From Cytophagaceae bacterium (GTDB taxonomy: Bacteria > Bacteroidota > Bacteroidia > Cytophagales > Spirosomataceae): 64,000 nucleotides of DNA. Position 1 is the stretch's first letter, and each line of letters opens with the position of its first letter. Under the pieces are notes generated by a model. That model saw only the letters and a list, made by a program, of their open reading frames with translations, made no database searches and was not told the DNA's origin. The DNA is taken from positions 26,538 through 90,537 of the forward strand of contig CANFVE010000001.1 of assembly GCA_947450365.1 (NCBI GenBank), written 5' to 3'. This document shows, one piece after another, positions 4,017-59,003 of this stretch. A program made the translations under genes and the position numbers.

Positions 4017-5168
4017 ATGGCAGCCAAAATTCTGTTTGTCGGGCATGATGCCAATCGCGCGGGGGCACAGTTGGTGCTCTTGCATTGGTTGAAAGCGGAG
4101 GCGGCGCAGGGTAGAAAGGCGTATTTGTTGCTCGAAAAGGGAGGGGAATTGGTTAGCCAATATGAGCGTTATGCGCGGGTATGGGTGTGGCGGAAGGGGC
4201 CGGGCAATATGGAGAAGATTTATAAAAAAATACCTTTCCTCAAACGTGAGGAAAGGATCGACCGGGAACCTAATCGACCTGAAATAGCGGATATGTTGCG
4301 TGATTTCAGAGGTGAAAAGTTCAATCTGATTTTGGGAAATACGGTGGCTTCGTTGGCTTTATTGCAAGAATTGCAAGGATTGCGGGTGCCATTTGGGACC
4401 TATGTTCATGAATTGAGTTTTTCGTTGTCGATGTATGCATCCGAAAAAGACATGAGCTTTTTAGCCACAAAGGTTTCCAAGGTTTTTGGGGTATCCGCCC
4501 AGGTGAATCGTTTATTGGCTGATAAATTCCAAGTGCCTTCGGATCGCTTGTTTTTATTGCCTCCGATTGCGGAATTGGTTAAGTCGAAGGGGACGAAATC
4601 AGGTTTGGTCAAGGAACAATTGGGAATTCCCGCGGAGGCAAAGGTGGTGTTAGGCTGTGGCATGGCGGAATGGCGAAAGGGAACGGATATTTTTGTTCGG
4701 GTGGCGAGGCAGGTTATCCGACAAATGCCAGACGTACATTTTGTCTGGTTGGGTGTCGGTGACAATGTATTTTCAGCTGAATTGCAGGCAGAAAAAGAGG
4801 GTTGGGACGAATGTGGACGTTTGCATTTGGTACCGAATAAAATGGATTCAAAACCTTATTTTGAGGCAATGGATGTCTTTTTCTTGTCATCCAGAGAGGA
4901 TCCTTTTCCGCTCGTGATGTTAGAGGCGGCTTTTCAAGGAAAGCCGATTGTGGGTTTTAAAGGAAGCGGTGGCGTAAATGATTTTTTGAAGGAATTGCCC
5001 GACTTACTCGTGGGCTATTTAGAAGAGGATGAGGCGAAGGAATGTTTGATGAATTGGTTAAAAAAAGACGCTGAAGTCTTAGGGGCTTTGGCAGAAAAAT
5101 TAAAAAATAGTGCCATGAATTATTCGACTGAGCGTTTTGTAGCGCGATGGAACGAAATGGACATATAA
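4017..5168 (+). CDS. GT-B fold glycosyltransferase (GT4-like) inside the nuo operon
   Basis: ILFVGHDANRAGAQL N-terminus; KGTDIF and DVFFLSSREDPFPLVMLEAA (E-x7-E); start placed at ATG 4017 after the nuoF stop. Confidence 0.88.
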   Translation: MAAKILFVGHDANRAGAQLVLLHWLKAEAAQGRKAYLLLEKGGELVSQYERYARVWVWRKGPGNMEKIYKKIPFLKREERIDREPNRPEIADMLRDFRGEKFNLILGNTVASLALLQELQGLRVPFGTYVHELSFSLSMYASEKDMSFLATKVSKVFGVSAQVNRLLADKFQVPSDRLFLLPPIAELVKSKGTKSGLVKEQLGIPAEAKVVLGCGMAEWRKGTDIFVRVARQVIRQMPDVHFVWLGVGDNVFSAELQAEKEGWDECGRLHLVPNKMDSKPYFEAMDVFFLSSREDPFPLVMLEAAFQGKPIVGFKGSGGVNDFLKELPDLLVGYLEEDEAKECLMNWLKKDAEVLGALAEKLKNSAMNYSTERFVARWNEMDI

Positions 5169-11311: not shown

Positions 11312-13293
11312 GGTACCCAAATTTTGATTCCTACCGAAAAGTTTCTTCCTGGAGACGCATTGAAATAGCGTCCTGCTGCGGCATTTAAATCAGGACCGGA
11401 CGAATACGTTTCATTCAGGATATTTTCCGCCGTTGCCCAGGCTTCGTATTTAATTTTGGCTATTTGATGGGCATAAGAGATTTTGGAATGTAGCAAACGA
11501 CTCGCTGGCAATACGTCGGTATTGGCATCATTTAGGAACATATAGTCCATAAATTGGTATTGGCCTGACCAAGAAAATCCGTTGGGATTCGAATAGATGG
11601 CCATAAGGGTATTTTGGAAGGGGCTGGTACCCGTAAGGAAATTGCCCGAGTAGGTTTTTCCAGAGGTGGTATAATCGCTAAATCGGAAATTTTGCCAAGC
11701 CGTATTTTGGATTAGACGTAGGTTTTTATGTGGGTACCAGGTTAGGCTGAGTTCGAGGCCTTGTTGCTTCGTTTGTCCCACATTGGCAAAATAATCTGAG
11801 CCGTCCGCCGCCCGACGAACCACAATCGTCTCGCTTAAATCAAATTGATACACACTTAGATCCCAGCTTAATTTTTTATTGGCCAAATTTCCGCGCCAAG
11901 AGATTTCTTTATTCCACCCTTTTTCGGCTTTCAAATCCGTATTGATGATGCCAGTAGATGGGCGCATTTCGGAGATGCTTGGGGGCGAATAGCCCTGGGA
12001 AATTTTAGCGGAAATACTTTGGAAAGGACTTAATGTACGCAGGATGGCCAATCGTGGAGAGAAAATTAATTCCTGGAAAATGTGCTGGGTAAAATAGCTG
12101 TTCAAACTTCCGGATAAGGTAAATTTCCAATTTTCTAGGGTCGTATATTCCGCTTGTAGGAAGGCAGTGCTTTGTTGGATTTGGGTAGTTTGATTGACTT
12201 GAAGGGTGTCTTTGACACCTTTTTTGTTGCCATAGGTTTGGCTATCGAACTGTCCGATTTGATATTCATAGCCCGCGTCTACTAGGATGGGACCTTTGTA
12301 ATGAAAGACTCCCCGACTGCTAAAATTAGGTTCATTTCTGAATTCATAATTTCGGATGGTTGGGTTTTCGATGGAGTTGAGTTGAAAACTATTCATCCAT
12401 TGATAGGCCCAGGCACTATTGAGTTGGTTCGATACCTGGGTTCCGATCCCGAAGCTTTTGATTTTAAATGTGGCTTGCTGGTCCACCGCACTTTTGAATG
12501 TTCCCGCAGCAGGTCTGGCGGCTTGGGGATTATCTTGGTATTGTTTGAGTGTTAAACCACCGGGGGTTTGGTAGGCTAAATCTCCGTAATAGGTGTTTAG
12601 GTCAAATGCCCCAGAACCATGAAAGCCTCGATGAAATTCGTAGGAAATCCATTGTTTTTTGACGGCGGATTGGACGCGATATCCTTCTTGTTGCCAAAAA
12701 CTCCCAAAAATGCGGTGGTTCTGATTTGGATTTCCAGCTTGATAATCTAAGCTGGTTTTGAGTCCACCGAGTGACATATAGCTCTGCTGCGCGCTTAGTC
12801 GATATGAATCATTCCATGTGCTATTGAATAAAATGGCACCTCCGGTACCTGCGCCATAGATTCCGCCATTGGGTCCTTTGGTCACGACGAGTTGATTAAA
12901 TAATTCGGGTTCCAGGAGCGAAAGATAGGTATTATTCCCTGCGTCGGTAAACGGAATTTGATTCCAGTAAACTTTCACATTTCGAACTCCAAAGGGCGCG
13001 CGGAGTGAACTTCCTCGGATAGCGATTCGATAACTTCCTGGGGATCGTTCCTCCATCCGGATTCCTGCTTGGCCATTAAGCGCTGTCATGAAACTCAATC
13101 CATTGCTTGGATTTAATATTTTTCCTTCTAACGACGTAAAGGCATCCGGGCTATTGAGTTTGCTTCGTTTTTTTTCAAAGAGGTGAACTTGGACCTCATT
13201 TAATTCCGTTGTTTTCAAACTGTCCTGTGCCTGCAAACTGAAAATAAGGAGGATTAGGAAGAATGTGCTGAGTAGAAAAGACTTAAAATTCAT
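11308..13293 (-). CDS. TonB-dependent outer-membrane receptor
   Basis: signal peptide; plug motifs IRGSS, NVKVYWNQIP, VTKGP; barrel ending PGRNFSVGIKIW. Confidence 0.9.
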   Translation of the reverse strand: MNFKSFLLSTFFLILLIFSLQAQDSLKTTELNEVQVHLFEKKRSKLNSPDAFTSLEGKILNPSNGLSFMTALNGQAGIRMEERSPGSYRIAIRGSSLRAPFGVRNVKVYWNQIPFTDAGNNTYLSLLEPELFNQLVVTKGPNGGIYGAGTGGAILFNSTWNDSYRLSAQQSYMSLGGLKTSLDYQAGNPNQNHRIFGSFWQQEGYRVQSAVKKQWISYEFHRGFHGSGAFDLNTYYGDLAYQTPGGLTLKQYQDNPQAARPAAGTFKSAVDQQATFKIKSFGIGTQVSNQLNSAWAYQWMNSFQLNSIENPTIRNYEFRNEPNFSSRGVFHYKGPILVDAGYEYQIGQFDSQTYGNKKGVKDTLQVNQTTQIQQSTAFLQAEYTTLENWKFTLSGSLNSYFTQHIFQELIFSPRLAILRTLSPFQSISAKISQGYSPPSISEMRPSTGIINTDLKAEKGWNKEISWRGNLANKKLSWDLSVYQFDLSETIVVRRAADGSDYFANVGQTKQQGLELSLTWYPHKNLRLIQNTAWQNFRFSDYTTSGKTYSGNFLTGTSPFQNTLMAIYSNPNGFSWSGQYQFMDYMFLNDANTDVLPASRLLHSKISYAHQIAKIKYEAWATAENILNETYSSGPDLNAAAGRYFNASPGRNFSVGIKIWVP

Positions 13294-14056
13294 AGGTGAT
13301 TGCCCCGGAAAGGCTGTTGGCTTGGGAGGCTAAAATGGATTTAGAGCTTTTGTTTTCGGCAGAACCTAAATTCAAGGTTTCAAAAGTGATATGAAATCCG
13401 AACTTTTGATGACGCAAACTTCCTTTGGCTCGATAACTTAAGGTGTTATTTGATACAAGTGATTCATAAGGAATCCCTACATAGGCCCCAAATAGGGTTA
13501 CATCATGAATAATTGGTTCAAAGGCTTGAAATTCTAATGTTTTAATTGATTTTCCAGGTATTTTAAGACCTATTCCGGCAGAAATCCCATGCAATGCATA
13601 TTTTTCTTCCTCTAAATAGGTTGTATTTTTTGAATGAATTCGACGGGCTAAGGACTTCGAATACAAGGAAAGTATCGGATAGAAATTCGGTTTTAATCGG
13701 GTTATTTGGTTCCACATTAAGCCTACTTCCGCTTCTCCTCCTCGATAACTCGCATATAATTCTTCATCCGGACTAATCACTTCGGAATACGAGTTTTTGG
13801 GCTGAATAAATTCGTAGGTTTTGCGATCAGTAATTGCATTTTCGATATTTCCCAAGGCTTTTAGGGCCACGAAAAATTTTCGAGCAGAATTCTTTTTCTG
13901 TACACTTAAGCGAATCGAAAGGTCCCCGGTAAATTCATTTTCATGCCAATTATAGTGGCTTGTGCCAATCCCTGCCTCTAATTTAATTAATTGGGCATTT
14001 ATCGAAATTGGAATAAATCCAAGACAACAAAGTAGAATACTAATTCCTTTTTTCAT
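13283..14056 (-). CDS. Hypothetical exported, probably beta-barrel, protein
   Basis: signal peptide (SINA-Q), beta-rich, ends in aromatic residue (GAITYEF). Confidence 0.55.
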   Translation of the reverse strand: MKKGISILLCCLGFIPISINAQLIKLEAGIGTSHYNWHENEFTGDLSIRLSVQKKNSARKFFVALKALGNIENAITDRKTYEFIQPKNSYSEVISPDEELYASYRGGEAEVGLMWNQITRLKPNFYPILSLYSKSLARRIHSKNTTYLEEEKYALHGISAGIGLKIPGKSIKTLEFQAFEPIIHDVTLFGAYVGIPYESLVSNNTLSYRAKGSLRHQKFGFHITFETLNLGSAENKSSKSILASQANSLSGAITYEF

Positions 14057-14078
14057 TTGACCTTAAATTTATTAATAA

Positions 14079-14837
14079 TTACCAATATTTATCACCTTTT
14101 TTGATGGCAAATCGAATACCCCTGCCAACAATGCCTATGTGATAAAAAAGAGATGAGATGAGACCAAAGTGTTTGCTCAAGACTTTAAATCGTTCGATCC
14201 AAGATTTTTTTAACTGTTGGACCGACGCCCCCCCCATTAAATAATTGCAAATAGGTCGCTCACTTTTTTGGATGATGGACGCAAGTTTAAGGCAAGTAAT
14301 TTCCCAATCTATGTCTGAACTGAGTGCATAATCCAAAGAAAATGCGGGTGCGATAGCTCTTCTCACCACAAAAGCCTGATGGCATATCACCATCCCAAAC
14401 TTGAAATCCTTCCATGATGCCTGTTCAGGCAAGCGATGGGGGGTCACCTCACTTCGTAATCCGATGGCTTGGCCCGCAAGGTTTACAAATTGGGCATCTC
14501 CATAGACGACATCGGGCTTGGATGCTAGGTCTTCCAACAAATAGCTTAGCGAACTAGCATCAAAAAACGTGTCTCCCGCATTCATAAAAAGTACATAATC
14601 TCCATTTGCCATTCGAAGACCTTTGTTCATGGCATCGTAAATGCCTTGGTCTTTTTCAGAGATCAGTTGGTCTATTTTAATCGGGGATTGTTTTAAAAAA
14701 TCTAAAGTGCCGTCTTTCGATCCGCCGTCGATCACGATGTATTCAATCTCCTCCCGATGCCCTTGTTCGGCCAGACTTTGGAGCGTCCGTTCGATGTAGG
14801 CTTCCGCCTGGTAGGTGATGGTGATGATGCTAAGCAT
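14079..14837 (-). CDS. Glycosyltransferase family 2
   Basis: SIITIT, VIDGGSKDGT, GIYDAMNKG, FMNAGD DxD-type motif. Confidence 0.92.
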   Translation of the reverse strand: MLSIITITYQAEAYIERTLQSLAEQGHREEIEYIVIDGGSKDGTLDFLKQSPIKIDQLISEKDQGIYDAMNKGLRMANGDYVLFMNAGDTFFDASSLSYLLEDLASKPDVVYGDAQFVNLAGQAIGLRSEVTPHRLPEQASWKDFKFGMVICHQAFVVRRAIAPAFSLDYALSSDIDWEITCLKLASIIQKSERPICNYLMGGASVQQLKKSWIERFKVLSKHFGLISSLFYHIGIVGRGIRFAIKKGDKYW

Positions 14838-16089
14838 GAGCTATCTCCGAAAGGGCTTTTTGGTAAAAATCAACATGTTTTACTGCCACAAGCTGCTCCG
14901 CGTAGCTATTTTTGGTTTTTTCCCGAGCGGCTTGACTGGCCTCTGGATGATCAAAAACCCATTGGATTCCGGTGGCCAAATCTTTCGCATTCAGGGGCCT
15001 TGCCACATATCCATTGCTTTTATGATCTATCATTTCAGGAATACCTCCGACCTGAAAACCTACGCAAGGCGTTCCACAGGCCATGGCCTCCATGAGGGTA
15101 TTGGGTAAATTTTCTTCCAAGGAGGGGGTGACAAACACATCGGCCGCATTGTAATATTCAGCCATTGTTTTTCCATTGCTTACTTTTCCGACAAGCCTTA
15201 TCGGCAAGGCCAGCGCTTCGAATACAGCTGGCTCATGTACTTCTCCGACAACTAATAGTTCCGCGAATTTTTTGGCCTCTGGATTATTTTTAACCCAGAA
15301 TTCCAGTGCATTTTTCAAATAGGCAAATCCTTTGGCCGGAGCCGAGGCTCGCATGGCAACAAACAAAATGTATTTTTTTTGAATATCTAATCCCAAATTC
15401 GTTTTGATCACCGTTTTTTGGGCCGGAGCAAATTGACGCAAGTTCAGCGCATTGGGAATGCATCGAATGGCGTGGGTGGAAAGAATGCTACTGGCTTTCG
15501 CTTTTTGTTCTAGCCAATGGCTGCAGGTAATTATTTTTAGATTTTCGGATTCGAAGGCCGAATGTTTTTTGCTCCACAAAGAATGCGAAAGATCTGTTTT
15601 GGCGGGCGATTTCAGAAAGGGGCATTGGCCGCAGTTTTGTTCAAATCGGGTGCAAGAACCACTGTGGTGGCAACCGCCTGTAAAGGCCCACATATCATGC
15701 AAGGTCCAAAAAATAGGTTTTCCCATGCTAAGTAATTTTCGAATATCTGAAATACCCAAAAATCCAAAATTCACCCAATGCAAGTGAATAATATCTGCCT
15801 CTAAAAGCGCAGGATGTGTAGAGAGGTTTTGTCCGAAAACACCGGGATTAAATAAAAATCGAATTGATTTGTCGCGCTCATGGAATAGGAAATAGAGGCG
15901 TTCGAGGACGAATCGTAGCCAGGCTAAGGCTTTTTGAAATGAATTTTTCGCCAAATCGGCTGCATCCAAATAAGTTACTTCGTGTCCTGCATTGCGCAGC
16001 GCATCAGCCAATCGTCCACAGGCAATTCCTGCCCCGCCATTTTCTTTATGGTAGCTTAGAAGAACGATACGTAGCGGGTGGATGGCCAT
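14830..16089 (-). CDS. Glycosyltransferase family 4 (WcaC-like)
   Basis: GGAGIAC, IIHLHWVN, WTLHDMWAFTGGCH, PSLEENLPNTLMEAMACG. Confidence 0.9.
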   Translation of the reverse strand: MAIHPLRIVLLSYHKENGGAGIACGRLADALRNAGHEVTYLDAADLAKNSFQKALAWLRFVLERLYFLFHERDKSIRFLFNPGVFGQNLSTHPALLEADIIHLHWVNFGFLGISDIRKLLSMGKPIFWTLHDMWAFTGGCHHSGSCTRFEQNCGQCPFLKSPAKTDLSHSLWSKKHSAFESENLKIITCSHWLEQKAKASSILSTHAIRCIPNALNLRQFAPAQKTVIKTNLGLDIQKKYILFVAMRASAPAKGFAYLKNALEFWVKNNPEAKKFAELLVVGEVHEPAVFEALALPIRLVGKVSNGKTMAEYYNAADVFVTPSLEENLPNTLMEAMACGTPCVGFQVGGIPEMIDHKSNGYVARPLNAKDLATGIQWVFDHPEASQAAREKTKNSYAEQLVAVKHVDFYQKALSEIAHA

Positions 16090-16841
16090 TATTTTTCTGC
16101 CTGAATGAGGATGTAAGGCGCGAAGGCCTTGGTTTGGATGGGGAAAATTTTGAAGAATATTTTAAGGGGGAGCCAACAAGCCGTTTTAAGTATTTTTACC
16201 CACAGGGGCTGTTGTTTTTCATTTTCTAACCACAACATAAATCCACCTGAATAGCTTACCGAGATCTGTTTTAGGCCTAATTTTTCACATTGCCCGTGCA
16301 AAAAATTGATATCCATGCAAGGAATGTGGTGTTTGGCGTAATTTTGAGGATCAAATTGCCGTTGGAACCAGCCATTTAGTCCTCGAAAATTGGGCAAACT
16401 AACAAATAATTGTCCTCCTTTTTTTAAGTATTGAATGTGTTTGGACAGGATTTCTTCGGTATTCGGAAAATGCTCAATGAGGCCATTCGAAATGACTAAA
16501 TCAAACCAATGCAAACCTTGTCCGTCGGGAGCAAATAAATCCTTTTCCCATAGTTCAATCTCTGCGTTTAAATGGTTTGCTTTTTTTAAATCCTCCACGA
16601 TTTTGGGGAGGATGACAAAATCGAGTAGCGTGGATTGAACGCCTAACGCTTGGGTGGCCCAAACGGAATAATAGCCTGGGAAACCACCGATTTCGAGCAG
16701 ATTTTTAACTTGATGTGCCTGAATAGACTGTTTTAATTCACGCGTAAACGGGTAATTGGCAGGAATGGGGAAGGCTAGGCCCACTTTACTCAGCCAGTAA
16801 TTTTTCCAAAAATCGTAGTCGGTTAGCGCTTCTTGTTTCAT
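16089..16841 (-). CDS. Class I SAM-dependent methyltransferase
   Basis: LLEIGGFPG motif I, DLVISNGLIEHF, LKKGG. Confidence 0.82.
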   Translation of the reverse strand: MKQEALTDYDFWKNYWLSKVGLAFPIPANYPFTRELKQSIQAHQVKNLLEIGGFPGYYSVWATQALGVQSTLLDFVILPKIVEDLKKANHLNAEIELWEKDLFAPDGQGLHWFDLVISNGLIEHFPNTEEILSKHIQYLKKGGQLFVSLPNFRGLNGWFQRQFDPQNYAKHHIPCMDINFLHGQCEKLGLKQISVSYSGGFMLWLENEKQQPLWVKILKTACWLPLKIFFKIFPIQTKAFAPYILIQAEK

Positions 16842-18109
16842 TTCTTTTCAAAAATTTCGTGGAGCGTATGGGCGATTCGTTCGGCCGCATGTCCGTCCCA
16901 AAGTGGGGGAATACTGCCTTTTTTGACCTCGCCTGCTAAGATTTTTTCGAGGGCTTGGTAGGTTTTTTGCGGATCTAAATCGGCTAATAATTGGTTTGTG
17001 CCGAGGCTTACGGTCACGGGTCGTTCGGTCGAATCGCGGAAGGTTAAACAAGGGATTCCTAAATAGGTCGTTTCCTCTTGAATACCACCAGAATCGGTTA
17101 AAATAGCTTTGGCGTGACTCATTAATTGAATAAATTCCAAATAACCTAAGGGCTCAGTTAGGATCAGATTAGGAACGGCTTCCATGCGTTTCGTTAATCC
17201 AAATTTATCCATGTGGGCACGTGTGCGTGGGTGGATGGGAAAAACAATGTTGGTTTTTTGGGCGCTGAGTTCCATTAATTCTAGGATGGAATTGAGGCCT
17301 TTTTCGGTGTCAACGTTGGCCGGTCGGTGCATCGTCATCACGATGTAGTCCGAAGTCTGAAGTCCGGAGGCTGGGGTCTGTAGTCCGGAGGCCGGAGTTT
17401 GTAGGCCGGAGGCTGGAGTCTGTAGTCCGGAGGCCGGAGTTTGTAGGCCGGAGGCTGGAGTCTGTAGTCCGGAGGCTGGGGTCTGTAGTCTGGAGGCCGG
17501 AGTTTGTAGGCCGGAGGCCGAAGGCGAAAGGCCTAAGTCGGCGAGGATGGTGCTATTTTTCGCTTTTTCTTGATAGCGTACCAAAGAGTCGATCATGACA
17601 TTGCCGCTGAAAAATACTTTTTCATCGGGCACCCCTTCATTTTTTAAATGGGTGAGGCCACTTTCTTCGGTCACAAATAAATAATTGGCTACTGAATCTG
17701 TCAAAAGTCGGTTTAATTCTTCCGGCATGGTGCGGTCGAAACTTCGAAGTCCCGCTTCCACATGGGCGAGAGGAATTCCCATTTTGATGGCAACCAAGGT
17801 ACATGCGAGGGTCGACGTGACATCGCCTACCACAATAATAAGATCAGGTTTTTCATCCGCCACGATTTTCTCGAAAGCTAGCATGATAAGGGCTGTTACT
17901 TCCGTATGTGAGCCGCCACCGATGCCTAAAAAATAATCAGGTTTGGGTAATTCCAATTGGGTAAAAAACACATCGCTCATTTTGGCATCAAAATGCTGCC
18001 CCGTATGAACGATTTTGGAGGACCAACCCGTTAATTTTTGAATGGCTCGGTGTAATGGAGCGACTTTCATGAAATTGGGCCGCGCCCCGACTACCTGAAT
18101 AACTTTCAT
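16838..18109 (-). CDS. wecB: UDP-N-acetylglucosamine 2-epimerase (non-hydrolysing) with an in-frame tandem-repeat insertion
   Basis: VGARPNFMK, HTGQH, HVEAGLRS, PEELNR, DSGGIQEE, ERPVT; (ASGLQTP)x8 inserted before TMHRPANVD. Confidence 0.95.
   Translation of the reverse strand: MKVIQVVGARPNFMKVAPLHRAIQKLTGWSSKIVHTGQHFDAKMSDVFFTQLELPKPDYFLGIGGGSHTEVTALIMLAFEKIVADEKPDLIIVVGDVTSTLACTLVAIKMGIPLAHVEAGLRSFDRTMPEELNRLLTDSVANYLFVTEESGLTHLKNEGVPDEKVFFSGNVMIDSLVRYQEKAKNSTILADLGLSPSASGLQTPASRLQTPASGLQTPASGLQTPASGLQTPASGLQTPASGLQTPASGLQTSDYIVMTMHRPANVDTEKGLNSILELMELSAQKTNIVFPIHPRTRAHMDKFGLTKRMEAVPNLILTEPLGYLEFIQLMSHAKAILTDSGGIQEETTYLGIPCLTFRDSTERPVTVSLGTNQLLADLDPQKTYQALEKILAGEVKKGSIPPLWDGHAAERIAHTLHEIFEKK
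17348..17536. repeat. Heptamer tandem array (27 x 7 nt, 21-nt higher-order period) inside wecB
   Basis: plus strand reads GTCCGGA/GGCCGGA/GGCTGGA/GTCTGTA/GTTTGTA in register from 17348 to 17536. Confidence 0.97.
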
Positions 18110-18137
18110 TTAAAATATTTGTCGTGGATAATTCCTA

Positions 18138-18169
18138 CAAAGATAAAGGAAAAAGTTAGAAGGCCCGAA
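18138..18169 (-). promoter_or_regulatory. Putative wecB promoter (TTCG-N20-TATCTTTG)
   Basis: -7 box TATCTTTG at 18145-18138; near-consensus -33 TTCG at 18169-18166 within the terminal heptamer of the adjacent array. Confidence 0.5.
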
Positions 18170-18309
18170 GTCCGGAGGCGAAAGGCCGAAGGCATTAGTC
18201 CGGAGGCAAAAGGTGGGAGCCCGGAGGCGATAGGCCGGAGGCATAAGTCCGGAGGCAAAAGGTGGGAGCCCGGAGGCGAAAGGCCGAAGGCATTAGTCCG
18301 GAGGCGAAA
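18163..18309. repeat. Heptamer tandem array (21 x 7 nt, 49-nt higher-order period), left flank of the four-helix-bundle gene
   Basis: GTCCGGA GGCAAAA GGTGGGA GCCCGGA GGCGA(T/A)A GGCCG(G/A)A GGCAT(A/T)A repeated at 18198-18246 and 18247-18295. Confidence 0.95.
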
Positions 18310-18447
18310 GTTAAGTAGTCCGTAGGATTGAGTCGGCAAGTTGAATTTAAAGGATTTGTCAAAATTTCTATTTGGCGTCAAACTAAATTTAAATTATCAA
18401 CATATTGATACAATGAATTTTTTCCTTTTCGTTTTAAAAATTAAACA

Positions 18448-18816
18448 ATGGGGGTCACGAAGTTTGAAGATTTACACGTGTGGCAAAGATCTTTACAAAT
18501 TGCTGTAAAGATTTATCAATTAGTACAATCGAATAGGGATTTTGGATTTAAGGATCAAATTCAACGGGCCGTAACTTCTATTTCAAATAACATCGCAGAA
18601 GGTTTTGACCGAGGGTCTGATCGAGATTTTAAACGATTTTTGTTTATCGCACTTGCTTCTGCAAGTGAGGTACGGTCGCTCGTTCACCTTGGTAGGGAAC
18701 TTGGTTACCTAGATCATGAATCGCATAAACTTCTTGAAAAGGAATTAATTGAAATCAGATATATGATTAATGGCCTATCAAAAACATTAACTCGAACTTC
18801 AGTAAAAAAATTATAG
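18448..18816 (+). CDS. Four-helix-bundle protein (23S rRNA IVP / TIGR02436 family, Avd-like fold)
   Basis: FEDLHVWQRS, DQIQRAVTSISNNIAEGFDR, FKRFLFIALASASEV, LGYL: family hallmark pattern; 122 aa, AT-rich. Confidence 0.9.
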   Translation: MGVTKFEDLHVWQRSLQIAVKIYQLVQSNRDFGFKDQIQRAVTSISNNIAEGFDRGSDRDFKRFLFIALASASEVRSLVHLGRELGYLDHESHKLLEKELIEIRYMINGLSKTLTRTSVKKL

Positions 18817-18874
18817 GTATTTGTTTTCCATTTGATGAATCATGTAAAATACCTACTCGACAAAGAATATTTTT

Positions 18875-19035
18875 TACGGCCTCCGGACTTTCGCCTCCGG
18901 CCTCCGGACTTTCGCCTCCGGCCTCCGGACTTTCGCCTCTGGCCTTCGGACTTTCGCCTCCGGCCTTCGGACTTTCGCCTCCGGCCTCCAGACTTTCGCC
19001 TCCGGCCTCCAGACTTTCGCCTCCAGCCTCCGGCC
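18875..19035. repeat. Heptamer tandem array (23 x 7 nt, 21-nt period), right flank, inverted relative to the left array
   Basis: plus strand (TCCGGAC TTTCGCC TCCGGCC)n = reverse complement of the GTCCGGA/GGCGAAA/GGCCGGA units. Confidence 0.97.
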
Positions 19036-20255
19036 TAACGACTTGCGGCTCTCGAAGAATACCTAAACGCCGCCAAATAATTCCCCAACACCGTATGAAT
19101 ATTAATCTCATTCTCGATGATTTCTCGGGATTTATCACCCATCGTTTTGATCTTGTCAGGCTCATGAAACAGCCAGGTGATTTTGGCAACCAAATCCTCC
19201 AAAGACCCCGATTCAAAATAATGCCCATTGATTCCCTCTTTGACCAAGCGCTTCTCCGTCCCATCCGCCACCGAACAAATCACCGGCTTTCCAAAACACA
19301 TCGCCTCATTAATCGATAAGCCACCCATGCCGGCCAACACATATATGCCCGCCCCCAAACTTATCTTTCCTAATGCCTCGAGTTCATAAATTCCTCCCGA
19401 AAAATGTATATAATCCTCCGCATCCGCGGCCCGAACCTGCGCTTGCAAGGCCGCCATTTCAGGACCATCGCCCACGATTTCCAGCTCCGTTTTTGGAAAT
19501 TTCTTCTTTAGTTCAATCGCCGCCTGGATGAGTAAATCCACTTGTTTCCATTTGACGAGTCGGCCGACGTGCAACAATCGAAACGGATGATGATCCACCG
19601 TGCCCTCTGTTTCTATCTTCTTTAAAACCCTGAAAATTTCATCCGTATCCGGCGAATTGGCCGTCACAAAAACCTTTTCGGAAGGCACCCCATAACTCGC
19701 ATGTAAGGCTCTTGCCTCATCCAGATAGTTAATGTGCGCATCCACAAGATTTGAAAATATGCGCCGAGTTTCTCGCACGATGGCGAATTTCAATTTGGCC
19801 AATATCGAACTACTTTGCTGATGCGCCTGCTGATTTTCCGTGACACCACCCCCCGCAAGATAATAGTCGATCGCTTCTTCGTAATGGGGCACCTGGAATG
19901 GAATTTCCTTGGAAATCAACGCAATGTTTTGCGATCGTAAAAAGCGATACCAAAATGGATAAAAGACAAACGAAACTTGGTAAGGCCAATTGACCATCAA
20001 AATAGTTGGCTTCTCCTGCAGAATCAATTCCCGCAGCCCTTTGAAGAATTTTTTGCCATAATAGGTGGTGTATTCTTCTTGAAAAAAGACCTTAAATTCG
20101 ATGCCCGACTGGCTTTCAAATACCCCTGCTCCCAACGTCGCCCCATTTCCTTTTGGCGCCACAACACAGACTTCCACCCCAAAATCCTTTTGCAATTTGT
20201 TCAAAACCAAATTGTAATAATGGGGCAAACCACCGGCCAACAACATTATCTTCAT
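19035..20255 (-). CDS. Glycosyltransferase family 4
   Basis: LLHVGRLVKWK, VGDGPE, GMGGLSINEAMCFGKPVI. Confidence 0.9.
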   Translation of the reverse strand: MKIMLLAGGLPHYYNLVLNKLQKDFGVEVCVVAPKGNGATLGAGVFESQSGIEFKVFFQEEYTTYYGKKFFKGLRELILQEKPTILMVNWPYQVSFVFYPFWYRFLRSQNIALISKEIPFQVPHYEEAIDYYLAGGGVTENQQAHQQSSSILAKLKFAIVRETRRIFSNLVDAHINYLDEARALHASYGVPSEKVFVTANSPDTDEIFRVLKKIETEGTVDHHPFRLLHVGRLVKWKQVDLLIQAAIELKKKFPKTELEIVGDGPEMAALQAQVRAADAEDYIHFSGGIYELEALGKISLGAGIYVLAGMGGLSINEAMCFGKPVICSVADGTEKRLVKEGINGHYFESGSLEDLVAKITWLFHEPDKIKTMGDKSREIIENEINIHTVLGNYLAAFRYSSRAASR

Positions 20256-58676: not shown

Positions 58677-58705
58677 AAAAGCCTCCGATTCGGGGGCTTT
58701 TTTTT
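58677..58705 (+). terminator. Rho-independent terminator
   Basis: AAAAGCCTCCG-att-CGGGGGCTTTTTTTT after the permease stop. Confidence 0.82.
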
Positions 58706-58713
58706 GGGTGTGG

Positions 58714-59003
58714 TCTTTGGCAATCCTTTTCGATACGATTTGGGCGGGATCTTTGGCAATCCTTTTCGATACGATTTGGGCGGGATCTTTGGCAATCCTT
58801 GCCAATGAAATAGGAGGACATTTGGGAATGGCGAGGTTTGCCAAAGCCAACCTGGCGGGATTTACCTTTGTCAAACCTTGAACCTTTCGTGCTTTAGGAC
58901 TTGCCAGGTTTAGGATTGACAAAGGGGCGGGATTTACCTTTGTCAAACCTTAATACTTTCGTGTTTTAGGACTCGCCAGGTTTAGGATTGACAAAGGGGC
59001 GGA
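58714..59003. repeat. Composite REP/BIME-like cluster: 36-bp x2.4, one 60-bp palindrome, 72-bp x2
   Basis: identical 36-mers at 58714 and 58750; 60-bp CTTTGGCAATCCTT..AGGTTTGCCAAAG at 58787-58846; 72-bp units at 58854 and 58926 with arms CCTTTGTCAAACCT/AGGATTGACAAAGG. Confidence 0.9.

Follow-up and report, generated by a model that had tools for sequence, protein, structure and literature searches.

A four-helix-bundle gene between inverted heptamer arrays in a glycan operon resembles a free-standing 23S rRNA intervening sequence

In an operon of an Aquirufa-like member of the Bacteroidota, a small four-helix-bundle (4HB) gene lies antisense to both of its neighbours, a glycosyltransferase gene and wecB, and is enclosed by tandem arrays of seven-nucleotide units. 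What kind of element do the gene and its arrays form, and what might the protein do with the repeats? We analysed the locus within a 64-kb stretch of DNA, referred to here as the window. The relevant features are:

16838-18109, minus strand: wecB, non-hydrolysing UDP-GlcNAc 2-epimerase (TIGR00236, 7.4e-94; PF02350, 2e-99), host of array A1 and downstream operon neighbour of the cassette
17347-17530, in frame in wecB (minus strand): array A1 (Tandem Repeats Finder, TRF, period 21 or 63, score 239-264)
18137-18149, minus strand: wecB promoter-like box, CCTTTATCTTTGT, which fits the Bacteroidetes -7 promoter consensus TAnnTTTG
18159-18310, plus strand: array A2, the upstream arm (TRF period 49 or 28, score 250)
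18311-18447, plus strand: AT-rich spacer from A2 to the start codon, a candidate promoter or operator
18448-18816, plus strand: 4HB gene, 122 aa, of the S23p or 23S rRNA intervening sequence (IVS) protein family (PF05635, TIGR02436)
18877-19037, plus strand: array A3, the downstream arm (TRF period 21, 94% matches, score 272)
19035-20255, minus strand: GT1-family glycosyltransferase gene (PF00534, 2.5e-26), upstream operon neighbour

The preliminary description of this DNA counted 71 heptamer units in three arrays, two of them inverted around the 4HB gene and the third in frame in wecB, with no comparable array elsewhere in the window. Our recount agrees on each point. A1, A2 and A3 hold 26.3, 21.7 and 23.0 units (about 71 in sum), and the only other sizeable tandem repeat found by TRF in the 64 kb is an unrelated 36/72-nt pair at 58703-59002. 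The spans reported by TRF are 17347-17520 for A1 and 18877-19033 for A3. A2 comprises about 22 heptamers (AGTCCGG AGGCGAA AGGCCGA AGGCATT and so on) and is purine-rich on the sense strand of the 4HB gene. In A3 the 21-nt unit CGGCCTC CGGACTT TCGCCTC, which reverse-complements the A2 type, is present 7.5 times; the array ends where the stop codon of the glycosyltransferase gene lies. As reverse complements of each other, A2 and A3 form arms of 98-113 nt that are 71-77% complementary; A1 belongs to the same unit family and is oriented like A2. The GC content is 0.64-0.68 in the arrays, 0.44 in the window and 0.36 in the 4HB gene. Allowing at most one mismatch, TCCGGAGGC has 51 matches versus 11.3 ± 3.6 expected, a number reached in 0 of 100 shuffles, and 27 of the 51 fall inside the three arrays. 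A CRISPR array, with repeats of about 25-40 nt and unique spacers, is rejected: the units are 7 nt long and contiguous, without spacers.

The enclosed gene, of which the window contains one copy, belongs to the family to which it had been assigned. It matches PF05635 (1.5e-32; 112.4 bits, curated cut-off 33.8) and TIGR02436 (4.4e-33; 113.8 bits, cut-off 24). An AlphaFold model of the monomer (pLDDT 90.1) places helices at residues 10-26, 32-54, 58-84 and 90-114. In Foldseek, the model reaches TM-scores of 0.84 to 2GSC, 0.77 to 2RLD and 0.75 to Avd (4DWL), and it is also paired with the Avd chains in the diversity-generating retroelement (DGR) ribonucleoprotein structures 8UBE and 8UB7. The structures 2GSC and 2RLD, each with five chains, are matched at the sequence level as well (1.3e-12 and 1.2e-6). 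Between two strains, 7 of 7 nucleotide differences in the gene are synonymous against a flank divergence of 9-10%, which shows that the protein is under purifying selection. The depth over the gene is 0-3.5 in one run labelled RNA-seq, available as contigs only.

The region 18123-19037, which we call the cassette, lies between the glycosyltransferase gene, whose stop codon abuts A3, and the wecB promoter. Promoter-like boxes of the CCTTTATCTTTGT type also precede wecB in two relatives (L115 and L120), both hemE and engB in locus L023, and both genes in L138. Because the box is kept in relatives that lack the cassette, it is host DNA and marks the left limit of the cassette. Within the spacer lie a palindrome, ATCAACATATTGAT (18396-18409), and an ATCGTTT-like box that is conserved; the spacer motif ATCA-N6-TGATACAAT is kept in the window, L023 and L024 despite a protein identity of about 59%. 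Judged from these sequence features, the spacer is a candidate promoter or operator of the 4HB gene's own. Members of this clade have 140-290 nt between the upstream array and the start codon, including the promoter-like region, so that the gene's own mRNA may lack the 5' arm. In agreement with the preliminary description, which had noted neither a transposase nor a reverse transcriptase, our search of the 64 kb found no transposase, integrase or reverse transcriptase.

The best reading of the layout is that the 4HB gene, placed between A2 and A3, is the loop of a very long hairpin whose arms are inverted tandem arrays of ~7-nt units. For the RNA of both strands, folding predictions give an interrupted stem of ~150 nt in which A2 pairs with A3 around the ORF (folding energy, plus strand, z = -10.8; minus strand, z = -12.7). 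The mismatches between the arms have no G:U-wobble bias on either strand (48 vs 67), and 55% are transversions. On both counts, the similarity of the arms looks as if it is kept at the DNA level or through recognition of a shared motif, not by selection for RNA pairing. The segment 16500-19800 has no match to rRNA or any other Rfam family. One of the annotated plasmid loci described below, L134 from Azospirillum, is a 23S rRNA gene (RF02541) with an IVS that holds the ORF between inverted heptamers of the GAGGACG and GTCTTCT types. The link to rRNA is better than the preliminary description supposed: this is a true 23S IVS with the same inverted heptamer arrays. In the Coxiella IVS, terminal inverted repeats form a stem that is cut by RNase III in vitro, and a variable number of heptamers lies upstream of the S23p ORF (PMC4990558).

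The arrangement recurs far from this operon, around homologous genes of several phyla. Aquirufa homologues (~59% identical) are located at engB-hemE and are bracketed by inverted AGTCCGR / CGGACT arrays. In diverse, Bacteroidota-like metagenome loci, an inverted-repeat score of at least 30, used as the threshold, is found for 48 of 65 4HB genes and for 2 of 86 non-4HB genes from these loci (Fisher, 2e-22); against shifted controls the counts are 48/66 and 2/171. The earlier proposal that gene and arrays form one unit is thus borne out. Nearly all arms consist of tandem arrays in which the period is 7 or 9 and the core is AAAGT(C/T), and array periods of 7, 9, 14, 16 and 21 nt stand out near 4HB genes. 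Tandem repeats cover 19.7% of the sequence within 250 nt of 4HB genes versus 2.0% elsewhere. Both AAAGT and AAGTC show a 10-12-fold enrichment, which lies on the sense strand before the gene and on the antisense strand after it, and the upstream sense strand is purine-rich (0.61). Some loci have arrays without the AAGT core (GAGGGAC, GGGAAAA and AGGAATT units), and solo arrays of the same unit type occur 0.4-2 kb from 4HB genes. A bare hairpin leaves both the conserved, fixed-polarity AAAGT(C/T) core and the solo arrays with the cassette unit type unexplained.

For 18 of 61 loci, the upstream arm finds its best partner in the downstream arm of its own locus. Among the 10 annotated plasmid loci that we examined (Nostoc, Anabaena, Calothrix, Pseudanabaena, Picosynechococcus, Riemerella and Azospirillum), every 4HB gene has flanking arrays; the two arrays of Pseudanabaena are direct, not inverted. 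Other contexts of 4HB genes are engB/hemE, cas6/cas4, cas10/cmr3, nrdB/nrdA and the inside of 23S rRNA, and the glycan-locus context that had been anticipated is therefore not general. The subfamily is nearly absent from viral contigs (1 locus).

Alignment of orthologous loci, suggested earlier as a way to find empty sites, reveals the block as present, absent or flipped among relatives. One contig joins 18122 to 19020 and has neither gene nor arrays, except for two heptamers, and there are relatives without the 4HB gene at glycosyltransferase-wecB. In the window's genome the cassette occupies this site and is absent from engB-hemE, while sister species have the opposite distribution; its orientation is flipped between L023 and L024. 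The copy number of A2 differs among strains L001-L007, and A3 comprises ~7.5, 6.5 or 2 units, as counted in short-read assemblies, which can collapse repeats or give wrong repeat sizes. The glycosyltransferase-wecB intergenic region is hypervariable within one species (L118 vs L127), and the empty sites L118, L119 and L138 contain gene-less inverted heptamer arrays and small palindromes. Neither the 18122/19020 junction nor the filled and empty engB-hemE sites show a target-site duplication.

The array in wecB encodes about eight in-frame copies of GLQTPAS and, compared with solved epimerase structures, constitutes a pure insertion. One contig omits 147 nt of it. The heptapeptide repeat is found genus-wide in 0 to ~11 copies, and Aquirufa wecB products vary in length between 365 and 444 aa, with 7-aa steps. 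The preliminary description saw in the locus a means of diversifying surface-glycan genes, which over-reads the evidence: the wecB repeat varies across the genus and is present also where no cassette adjoins. The unit types of cassette and wecB arrays agree in the two species compared. In A. antheringensis, where the two are ~19 kb apart on one contig, both have GACTAGC, GACTATC and GACTAGT units; in the window species, both have GCCTCCG plus GACTnnn units. The wecB array may be a solo array of the cassette unit family that has grown from a native GACTTCGGACT seed. It would be tolerated in frame because three heptamers equal seven codons in an inter-domain loop.

On balance, we consider it somewhat probable that the cassette at 18123-19037 represents, in free-standing form, the element of ORF-bearing 23S rRNA IVSs. 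The cassette would be transcribed from its own promoter or through read-through of the host operon, after which the arms would pair. Cleavage of the paired stem by RNase III would then release the cassette RNA from the transcript of the host operon. The removal of the cassette RNA in this way could explain why the cassette is tolerated in rRNA genes and tightly packed operons. The arms would lengthen and shorten by slippage, recombination or gene conversion at the DNA level would keep them alike, and exchange between them could invert the cassette. The most likely targets of the 4HB oligomer are the arrays or the hairpin, by analogy with the structurally related Avd, which binds RNA within DGR complexes. 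The polar AAAGT(C/T) core and the cassette/wecB unit match in two species suggest that the protein may bind, seed or expand the arrays. Against the hairpin reading stand the lack of a wobble bias in the arm mismatches, the distance of the upstream array from the start codon, the antisense placement of the gene, the fixed-polarity core, the solo arrays and the direct arrays of Pseudanabaena.

A possible account, to which we give distinctly less credence, makes the hairpin secondary. Each subunit of the 4HB ring would bind one AAAGT(C/T)-type unit of single-stranded RNA or DNA, in the way the TRAP protein binds spaced triplets, and the arrays would be cis elements for autoregulation or self-propagation, like the inverted REP of RAYT genes. 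It is favoured by a core motif and polarity that are kept while the rest of the unit drifts, by the purine-rich upstream strand, and by an arm similarity that is not RNA-compensatory in kind. The agreement of unit types between separate arrays of one genome, the nearby solo arrays and the resemblance of the fold to Avd, including its chains in DGR ribonucleoproteins, point the same way. However, the predicted four-helix fold alone does not establish sequence-specific binding, the within-genome agreement comes from two species and has gene conversion as an equally good explanation, and the AAGT core is missing at some loci. The purine-rich 5' arms, moreover, often resemble ribosome-binding sequences (GGAGG, AGGAG), a likeness that would account for the polarity with no need for protein binding. 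This account and the hairpin cassette can coexist.

It is improbable that the locus is a contingency locus, in which slippage-prone repeats are selected to vary glycan-gene expression or linker length and the 4HB gene is a passenger. While the 7-aa steps of wecB across the genus, the hypervariable intergenic region within a species and the heptanucleotide repeats reported to drive phase variation of H. influenzae hmw1A (PMC8262952, PMC12721329) fit such a locus, the arrays accompany the 4HB gene into engB-hemE, cas operons, nrdB-nrdA and 23S rRNA, and other genes in the same loci have none. Nor would wecB be switched on and off, since 21-nt units keep the reading frame. Still harder to accept is a neutral origin, with template switching and slippage generating inverted arrays at hairpin-prone spots into which 4HB genes preferentially insert. 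The gene-less arrays and palindromes at empty sites and the solo arrays would follow from it, but the insertion preference would need its own explanation, the array polarity is fixed relative to the gene, the same layout is found inside rRNA helices, and the empty-site contig is free of arrays and gene, two heptamers aside. Scarcely credible is templated synthesis of the arrays, similar to telomerase or DGRs, by the Avd-like protein and a reverse transcriptase encoded elsewhere. Only the Avd-like fold and the genome-specific unit types speak for it. Neither the 64 kb nor the listed flanks of related loci contain a reverse transcriptase, a template/variable repeat pair or an integrase, and viral contigs hold a single locus of the subfamily. 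The preliminary description had placed a catalytic reverse-transcriptase partner in trans; nothing points to such an enzyme.

There is also a wider reading, which we regard as unlikely: 4HB genes and inverted arrays would be one ancient, self-contained element in several phyla, whose protein recognises a genome-specific repeat of 7-9 nt, its own, and helps that repeat to persist or spread. If true, the 23S rRNA IVSs, the 4HB genes in cas, nrd and glycan operons, the wecB repeat and at least part of the cyanobacterial short tandemly repeated repetitive (STRR) heptamer arrays would be products of one system. The recurrence of the gene with inverted arrays opens the PF05635/TIGR02436 family to testing.

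The cassette shares features with several known systems. The DGR accessory protein Avd has the four-helix-bundle fold predicted for the 4HB protein (TM-score 0.75 to 4DWL), at a sequence identity of only 9-12%. DGRs possess a reverse transcriptase and a template/variable repeat pair, neither of which is near the 4HB gene; a DGR is rejected, as the 64 kb contain no reverse-transcriptase domain and the arrays are the only repeats near the gene. Similar to REP/RAYT systems, a single gene lies between inverted copies of a short repeat with further occurrences in the genome, and long inverted arms of tandem short units are also known from the foldback elements of Drosophila. In contrast to RAYTs, foldback elements and MITEs, the 4HB gene has no recognisable HUH or DDE transposase, the filled and empty junctions show no target-site duplication, and the copy number per genome is low where visible. 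A transposon, MITE or foldback element is accordingly rejected, with no transposase, no target-site duplication and one 4HB copy in the window.

The canonical units of STRR arrays have AGTC as their core. [quoted passage not shown] The STRRs of cyanobacteria are intergenic, hairpin-capable tandem arrays of 7-bp units with unknown function (PMC2670836). Unit length and hairpin potential agree with the arrays described here, while the unit sequences differ, and STRRs are defined in heterocystous cyanobacteria, whereas the host here is an Aquirufa-like member of the Bacteroidota. The cyanobacterial 4HB genes examined carry flanking heptamer arrays. At H. influenzae hmw1A, 7-nt repeats in variable number likewise lie upstream of a gene, and one report presents a 5'-UTR RNA element targeted by RNase III as essential for phase variation there (PMC12721329). 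The hmw1A locus has a single array, without an inverted partner, an enclosed ORF or a 4HB gene.

From the ORF-bearing 23S rRNA IVSs of Leptospira, Coxiella, Azospirillum and others, the cassette differs in that protein-coding genes lie on both of its sides and that its ORF runs antisense to the host operon, where the IVS ORF is sense to the rRNA. Its arms measure ~150 nt, compared with 28 bp in Coxiella, and unlike the IVSs it appears to have its own promoter region. Common to both are the S23p / PF05635 protein family, an ORF enclosed by complementary, stem-forming termini, and heptamers beside the ORF, which vary in number in Coxiella and form inverted arrays in Azospirillum.

Two heptamer arrays, A2 and A3, bracket a gene for a four-helix-bundle (4HB) protein whose neighbours, a GT1 glycosyltransferase gene (GT) and wecB, are both on the opposite strand. 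A third array, A1, is in frame in wecB. The features of this region are listed below, with array periods from Tandem Repeats Finder.

16838-18109, minus strand: wecB, polysaccharide cluster
17347-17520: array A1, within wecB, period 21 or 63
18159-18310: array A2, upstream of the 4HB gene, period 49 or 28
18448-18816, plus strand: 4HB gene, match to PF05635/TIGR02436
18877-19033: array A3, downstream of the 4HB gene, period 21, 94% matches
19035-20255, minus strand: GT1 glycosyltransferase gene, polysaccharide cluster

Cut into 7-mers, A1, A2 and A3 comprise 26, 22 and 23 units, with the sequences AGTCTGT AGTCCGG AGGCYGG (A1), AGTCCGG AGGCGAA AGGCCGA AGGCATT (A2) and CGGCCTC CGGACTT TCGCCTC (A3). 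A2 and A3 are reverse complements of each other; A1 runs in the same direction as A2. GC content is 0.64-0.68 in the arrays, 0.44 over the whole window and 0.36 in the enclosed 4HB gene. With at most one mismatch, TCCGGAGGC matches 51 times in the window (11.3 expected), and 27 of the 51 matches lie within the arrays. Tandem Repeats Finder, the 7-mer counts and the PF05635/TIGR02436 match confirm in all details the three arrays and the 4HB gene reported in the preliminary description. The predicted protein structure (pLDDT 90) has four helices and superposes on the S23p structures 2GSC (TM 0.84) and 2RLD (TM 0.77) and on Avd (4DWL, TM 0.75). We know of no function of PF05635/TIGR02436 proteins outside DGRs.

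No transposase, integrase or reverse transcriptase was found within the 64-kb window, as had been stated for transposases and reverse transcriptases, and no Rfam family matched the region of the cassette, i.e. the 4HB gene with its inverted arrays. A CRISPR reading was rejected because the array units are 7 nt long and contiguous, without spacers. A DGR was rejected as well, since the 64 kb contain no reverse-transcriptase domain and the only repeats near the gene are the arrays. Apart from the arrays, the 64 kb contain only one pair of large tandem repeats, unrelated to them, at 58703-59002. The pair occupies the spacer that separates an amino-acid permease gene from prfC and consists of a 36-nt unit in 2.7 copies (TTTGGGCGGGATCTTTGGCAATCCTTTTCGATACGA) and a 72-nt unit in 2.1 copies with an internal palindrome, CCTTTGTCAAACC...GGATTGACAAAGG. 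Their TTTGGCAATCCTT core is similar to a duplicated segment in the GT-wecB filler of another locus (L120). A further GT1-family glycosyltransferase gene (4017-5168, 383 aa) is located within the NADH dehydrogenase (nuo) operon, flanked by the genes of the 51-kDa subunit and the Fer2/NADH-G subunit (gene calls in the window's own genome, L138, and in L139).

The association of gene and arrays recurs in other genomes. Outside the window species, the nearest 4HB homologues (~59% identical) are found in freshwater Aquirufa between engB and hemE. They are also bracketed by arrays, with AGTCCGA/AGTCCGG upstream and the reverse complement downstream. The arms of A. antheringensis are nearly pure heptamers, with ~17 copies of TAGTCGC/TAGTCGA upstream and 11-15 copies of GACTAGC/GACTATC/GACTAGT downstream. 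A metagenome scan yielded 80 loci with homologues 42-58% identical, for which an inverted-repeat score was obtained by aligning the upstream flank of the gene with the reverse complement of the downstream flank. Using 350-nt flanks, the score was at least 30 in 48 of 66 4HB loci and in 2 of 171 shifted controls; using 250-nt flanks, it reached this value for 48/65 4HB genes and 2/86 other predicted genes of the same loci (Fisher 2e-22). The arms of these loci are tandem arrays in almost every case. Upstream units include AAAGTCTGT, AAAGTTTAT, AGTCGAA, AGTCAAA, AAAGTAC, AGGAATT, GAGGGAC, GGTGGAAAA and CAGTGGG, and the complements are found downstream. Tandem repeats cover 19.7% of the bases within 250 nt of the 4HB genes and 2.0% of those elsewhere, and the autocorrelation has peaks at 7, 9, 14, 16 and 21 nt. 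AAAGT and AAGTC are enriched 10-12-fold on the upstream sense strand and the downstream antisense strand, and not in the reverse arrangement. The unit varies between loci, while both arms within one locus match: the best partner was the locus's own downstream arm in 18 of 61 cases (~1 by chance).

Annotated plasmids carried arrays next to the 4HB gene in all ten loci examined. Examples of upstream and downstream units in annotated sequences are:

Nostoc sp. ATCC 53789 plasmid: GGGAAAA upstream, CCCTTTTC downstream
Anabaena sp. 90: AGGTGAC and AGGGAAC heptamers over ~270 nt upstream, CTGTCAC downstream; between cas6 and cas4
Nostoc edaphicum: AGTAGGG upstream, TCCCTAC downstream; antisense, between nrdB and nrdA
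Picosynechococcus: AGGAGATA upstream, ATCTCCTA downstream; between cas10 and cmr3
Riemerella: GGTTTAA upstream, TAAACCT downstream

The exceptions are Pseudanabaena, where the arrays are direct, and Nostoc PCC 7120, where both 4HB copies have a downstream array only and transposase genes are annotated nearby. Together, the gene comparison (48/65 against 2/86) and the plasmid loci (10/10) extend well beyond the window the proposal that gene and arrays form one unit. Cassettes also occur in clusters, since two metagenome contigs each carry three 4HB genes within ~5 kb with arrays between them (L038, 1009-4231; L063, 1229-5806). A scan of 185,579 species genomes for AGGCRAAAGKCCGRAGGCNNNAGKC returned 15 single matches, mostly chance matches in GC-rich genomes, and the only one with a small 7-mer array, in a Bacteroidetes MAG (L008), has no 4HB gene. 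The exact unit is therefore lineage-specific, and tracing of the family has to rely on the gene. Among 2.9 million viral contigs a single weak 4HB locus was found, and a phage-gene reading was rejected on this basis.

Independent assemblies of the window species encode an identical 4HB protein and differ in the size of the arrays. A3 has ~7.5, 6.5 or 2 units; the A2 copies of L006 and L007 are short, those of L004 and L005 long and rearranged. Short reads underlie most of these assemblies, and repeat sizes may therefore be wrong. Between the window and L004, the 4HB gene differs at 7 nucleotides, all synonymous, compared with 9-10% divergence of the non-coding flanks, indicating purifying selection on the protein. 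Placing public contigs on the region revealed three joints. In one contig 18122 is joined directly to 19020, with the gene and both arrays gone and two heptamers left; in contigs of two other runs the cassette is replaced by 237 unrelated bases; and one contig lacks 147 nt of A1, equal to seven 21-nt units. Contigs of a run labelled RNA-seq (X23) gave a depth of 0-3.5 over the 4HB gene.

In relatives whose wecB is 78-85% identical, the GT-wecB spacer contains no 4HB gene. It is hypervariable (91-310 nt), often with short or gene-less inverted arrays. Within A. antheringensis, the spacers of two strains (L118, 3903-4001; L127, 1362-1501) are wholly unlike: in one there are inverted heptamers of GAGAGTA type without a gene, in the other CAGTGGA/AGTCCG units and, after them, repeated AACTTTG boxes. 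In the window's own genome (L138, an exact match to the window start), the engB-hemE spacer (2387-2569, ~6.5 kb upstream of the window start) is 183 nt long and empty of the cassette. It contains only two divergent promoter boxes and, between them, a small palindrome, GGCGCAGT..ACTGCGCC (sequence GGCGCAGTAGCCCGACTGCGCC). Sister species carry the cassette at engB-hemE, and occupancy of the two spacers is therefore reciprocal between species. No target-site duplication was seen at the 18122/19020 junction or at the filled and empty engB-hemE sites. ACAAAG(G/A)TAAGG was considered as an outer terminal inverted repeat and rejected: it corresponds to TAnnTTTG boxes, which are kept at empty sites and belong to the flanking genes wecB, hemE and engB. 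TAnnTTTG is the Bacteroidetes -7 promoter consensus. The cassette at engB-hemE points toward hemE in L023, L025 and L123 and toward engB in L024 and L049, as expected if the inverted arms recombine. Where its ORF runs back through the downstream array, hemE is called with 376 aa, otherwise with 342-343 aa (L025-L034 versus L023 and L123); this difference is an annotation artefact caused by the array.

Across Aquirufa, WecB length varies between 365 and 444 aa in seven-residue steps, owing to 0 to ~11 copies of a heptapeptide repeat directly after ...DLGL; in the window, A1 accounts for about eight copies of GLQTPAS. The site is at the junction of the two domains, and solved epimerase structures lack residues there. 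Zero-copy alleles read CTTCAGACTTCGGACTAC and contain two GACT cores 7 nt apart. This genus-wide copy range and the cores at zero-copy alleles indicate that the wecB array is old and independent of an adjacent cassette. Its units nevertheless track those of the cassette of the same species in two species. In A. antheringensis, GACTAGC, GACTAGT, GACTATC and GACTATT, together with GACTCCC, match the cassette, which lies on the same contig at a distance of ~19 kb. The cassette and the wecB array of the window species both have GCCTCCG and GACTnnn units and share the 14-mer AGTCCGGAGGCYGG. The match is real, but a sample of two species cannot tell gene conversion from trans-acting specificity. In cassette-less relatives, the best inverted match of the GT-wecB intergenic arrays was at or overlapping the wecB array site in 5/5 loci, with weak scores of 18-27 against a median of 15-16, and this pairing was dropped as a basis.

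One 4HB match, in Azospirillum lipoferum 4B, lies inside a 23S rRNA gene (Rfam RF02541, 2155 bits; plasmid AZO_p2, record 13192-15939). It is the ORF of an intervening sequence (IVS), absent from the features listed for the record, and is flanked by heptamer arrays in inverted orientation, TCAGAGGACGGATGACAGAGGACGGAGGACAG and its complement, at distances of 20 nt (upstream) and 29 nt (downstream). In the Coxiella IVS, an S23p ORF lies between terminal inverted repeats, which form a stem cleaved by RNase III in vitro, and variable-number tandem heptamers (GACAGAT) are found directly upstream of the ORF (PMC4990558). Since both layouts match, the window element shares the architecture of ORF-bearing IVSs; its copy sits outside rRNA. 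Judged from sequence, the rRNA IVS is one instance of a 4HB gene within inverted arrays.

In the predicted RNA fold of either strand, A2 pairs with A3, and the resulting long stem, which has interruptions, encloses the ORF. The plus strand has an MFE of -344 kcal/mol (shuffles, -258 +/- 8; z = -10.8), and for the minus strand z is -12.7. We lean, by a small margin over even chances, towards a free-standing hairpin cassette of the IVS type. Homology with the IVS makes cutting of the stem by RNase III the most economical reading, and such cutting would let the cassette reside inside rRNA and tight operons. The contexts cas6-cas4, cas10-cmr3, nrdB-nrdA, GT-wecB and gmk-nadD fit this reading; the last is listed for Flavobacterium columnare in a gene table of PMC5524665. 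Three observations count against a pure RNA stem: in a G:U wobble test for RNA-level selection, arm mismatches are mostly transversions without wobble bias; there is conservation of the AAAGT(C/T) core and of the purine-rich polarity; and in this clade A2 is separated from the start codon by a promoter-like region. They favour homogenisation at the DNA level, recognition of the repeat by a protein, or both, and such a protein is most plausibly the 4HB oligomer itself. The polarity could also be explained by the frequent similarity of the purine-rich 5' arm to a ribosome-binding sequence (GGAGG, AGGAG). Array binding by the 4HB protein would be a second layer compatible with the hairpin cassette, and we consider it less likely than not. 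Phase variation, a neutral origin and a retroelement are given low probability.

PF05635/TIGR02436 proteins have been puzzling since the 1993 description of ORF-bearing rRNA IVSs (Ralph and McClelland 1993, as cited in PMC4990558). ORF-bearing IVS elements, Avd and the heptamers beside the Coxiella ORF are already known. Free-standing 4HB genes of several phyla are systematically bracketed by inverted 7-9-nt arrays with a polar core. In the literature searched, with most subscription journals outside its coverage, neither this layout nor the rRNA IVS as one case of it is described. The 4HB gene is accompanied by a cis architecture that is conserved: ~7-nt units in inverted arrays, with an AAAGT(C/T)-type core of fixed polarity. 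A "hypothetical protein" thereby becomes a defined element whose parts can be tested: arms, loop ORF, RNase III cutting and array binding. This architecture may explain why 4HB genes sit unharmed in rRNA genes and tight operons. In practice, gene callers read through the arrays, as for hemE, and arrays produce length-variable proteins such as WecB.

4HB genes with arrays are found inside CRISPR-Cas operons of three plasmids (Anabaena sp. 90 pANA02, L132; Pseudanabaena pPg_01, L133; a Picosynechococcus plasmid, L137). The order is cas6-4HB-cas4 in two of them, type I-D in Anabaena (annotated cas1d), and cas10-4HB-cmr3, type III-B. Such insertions may explain why "23S rRNA IVP" is listed among CRISPR-associated domains in a figure legend of PMC10910872. 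Cyanobacterial STRR are 7-bp, hairpin-forming repeats of unknown function (PMC2670836); the arrays match them in unit length and hairpin potential and differ from them in unit sequence. A tie between the two is a possible lead, and 4HB cassettes are possibly the origin of the STRR heptamers.
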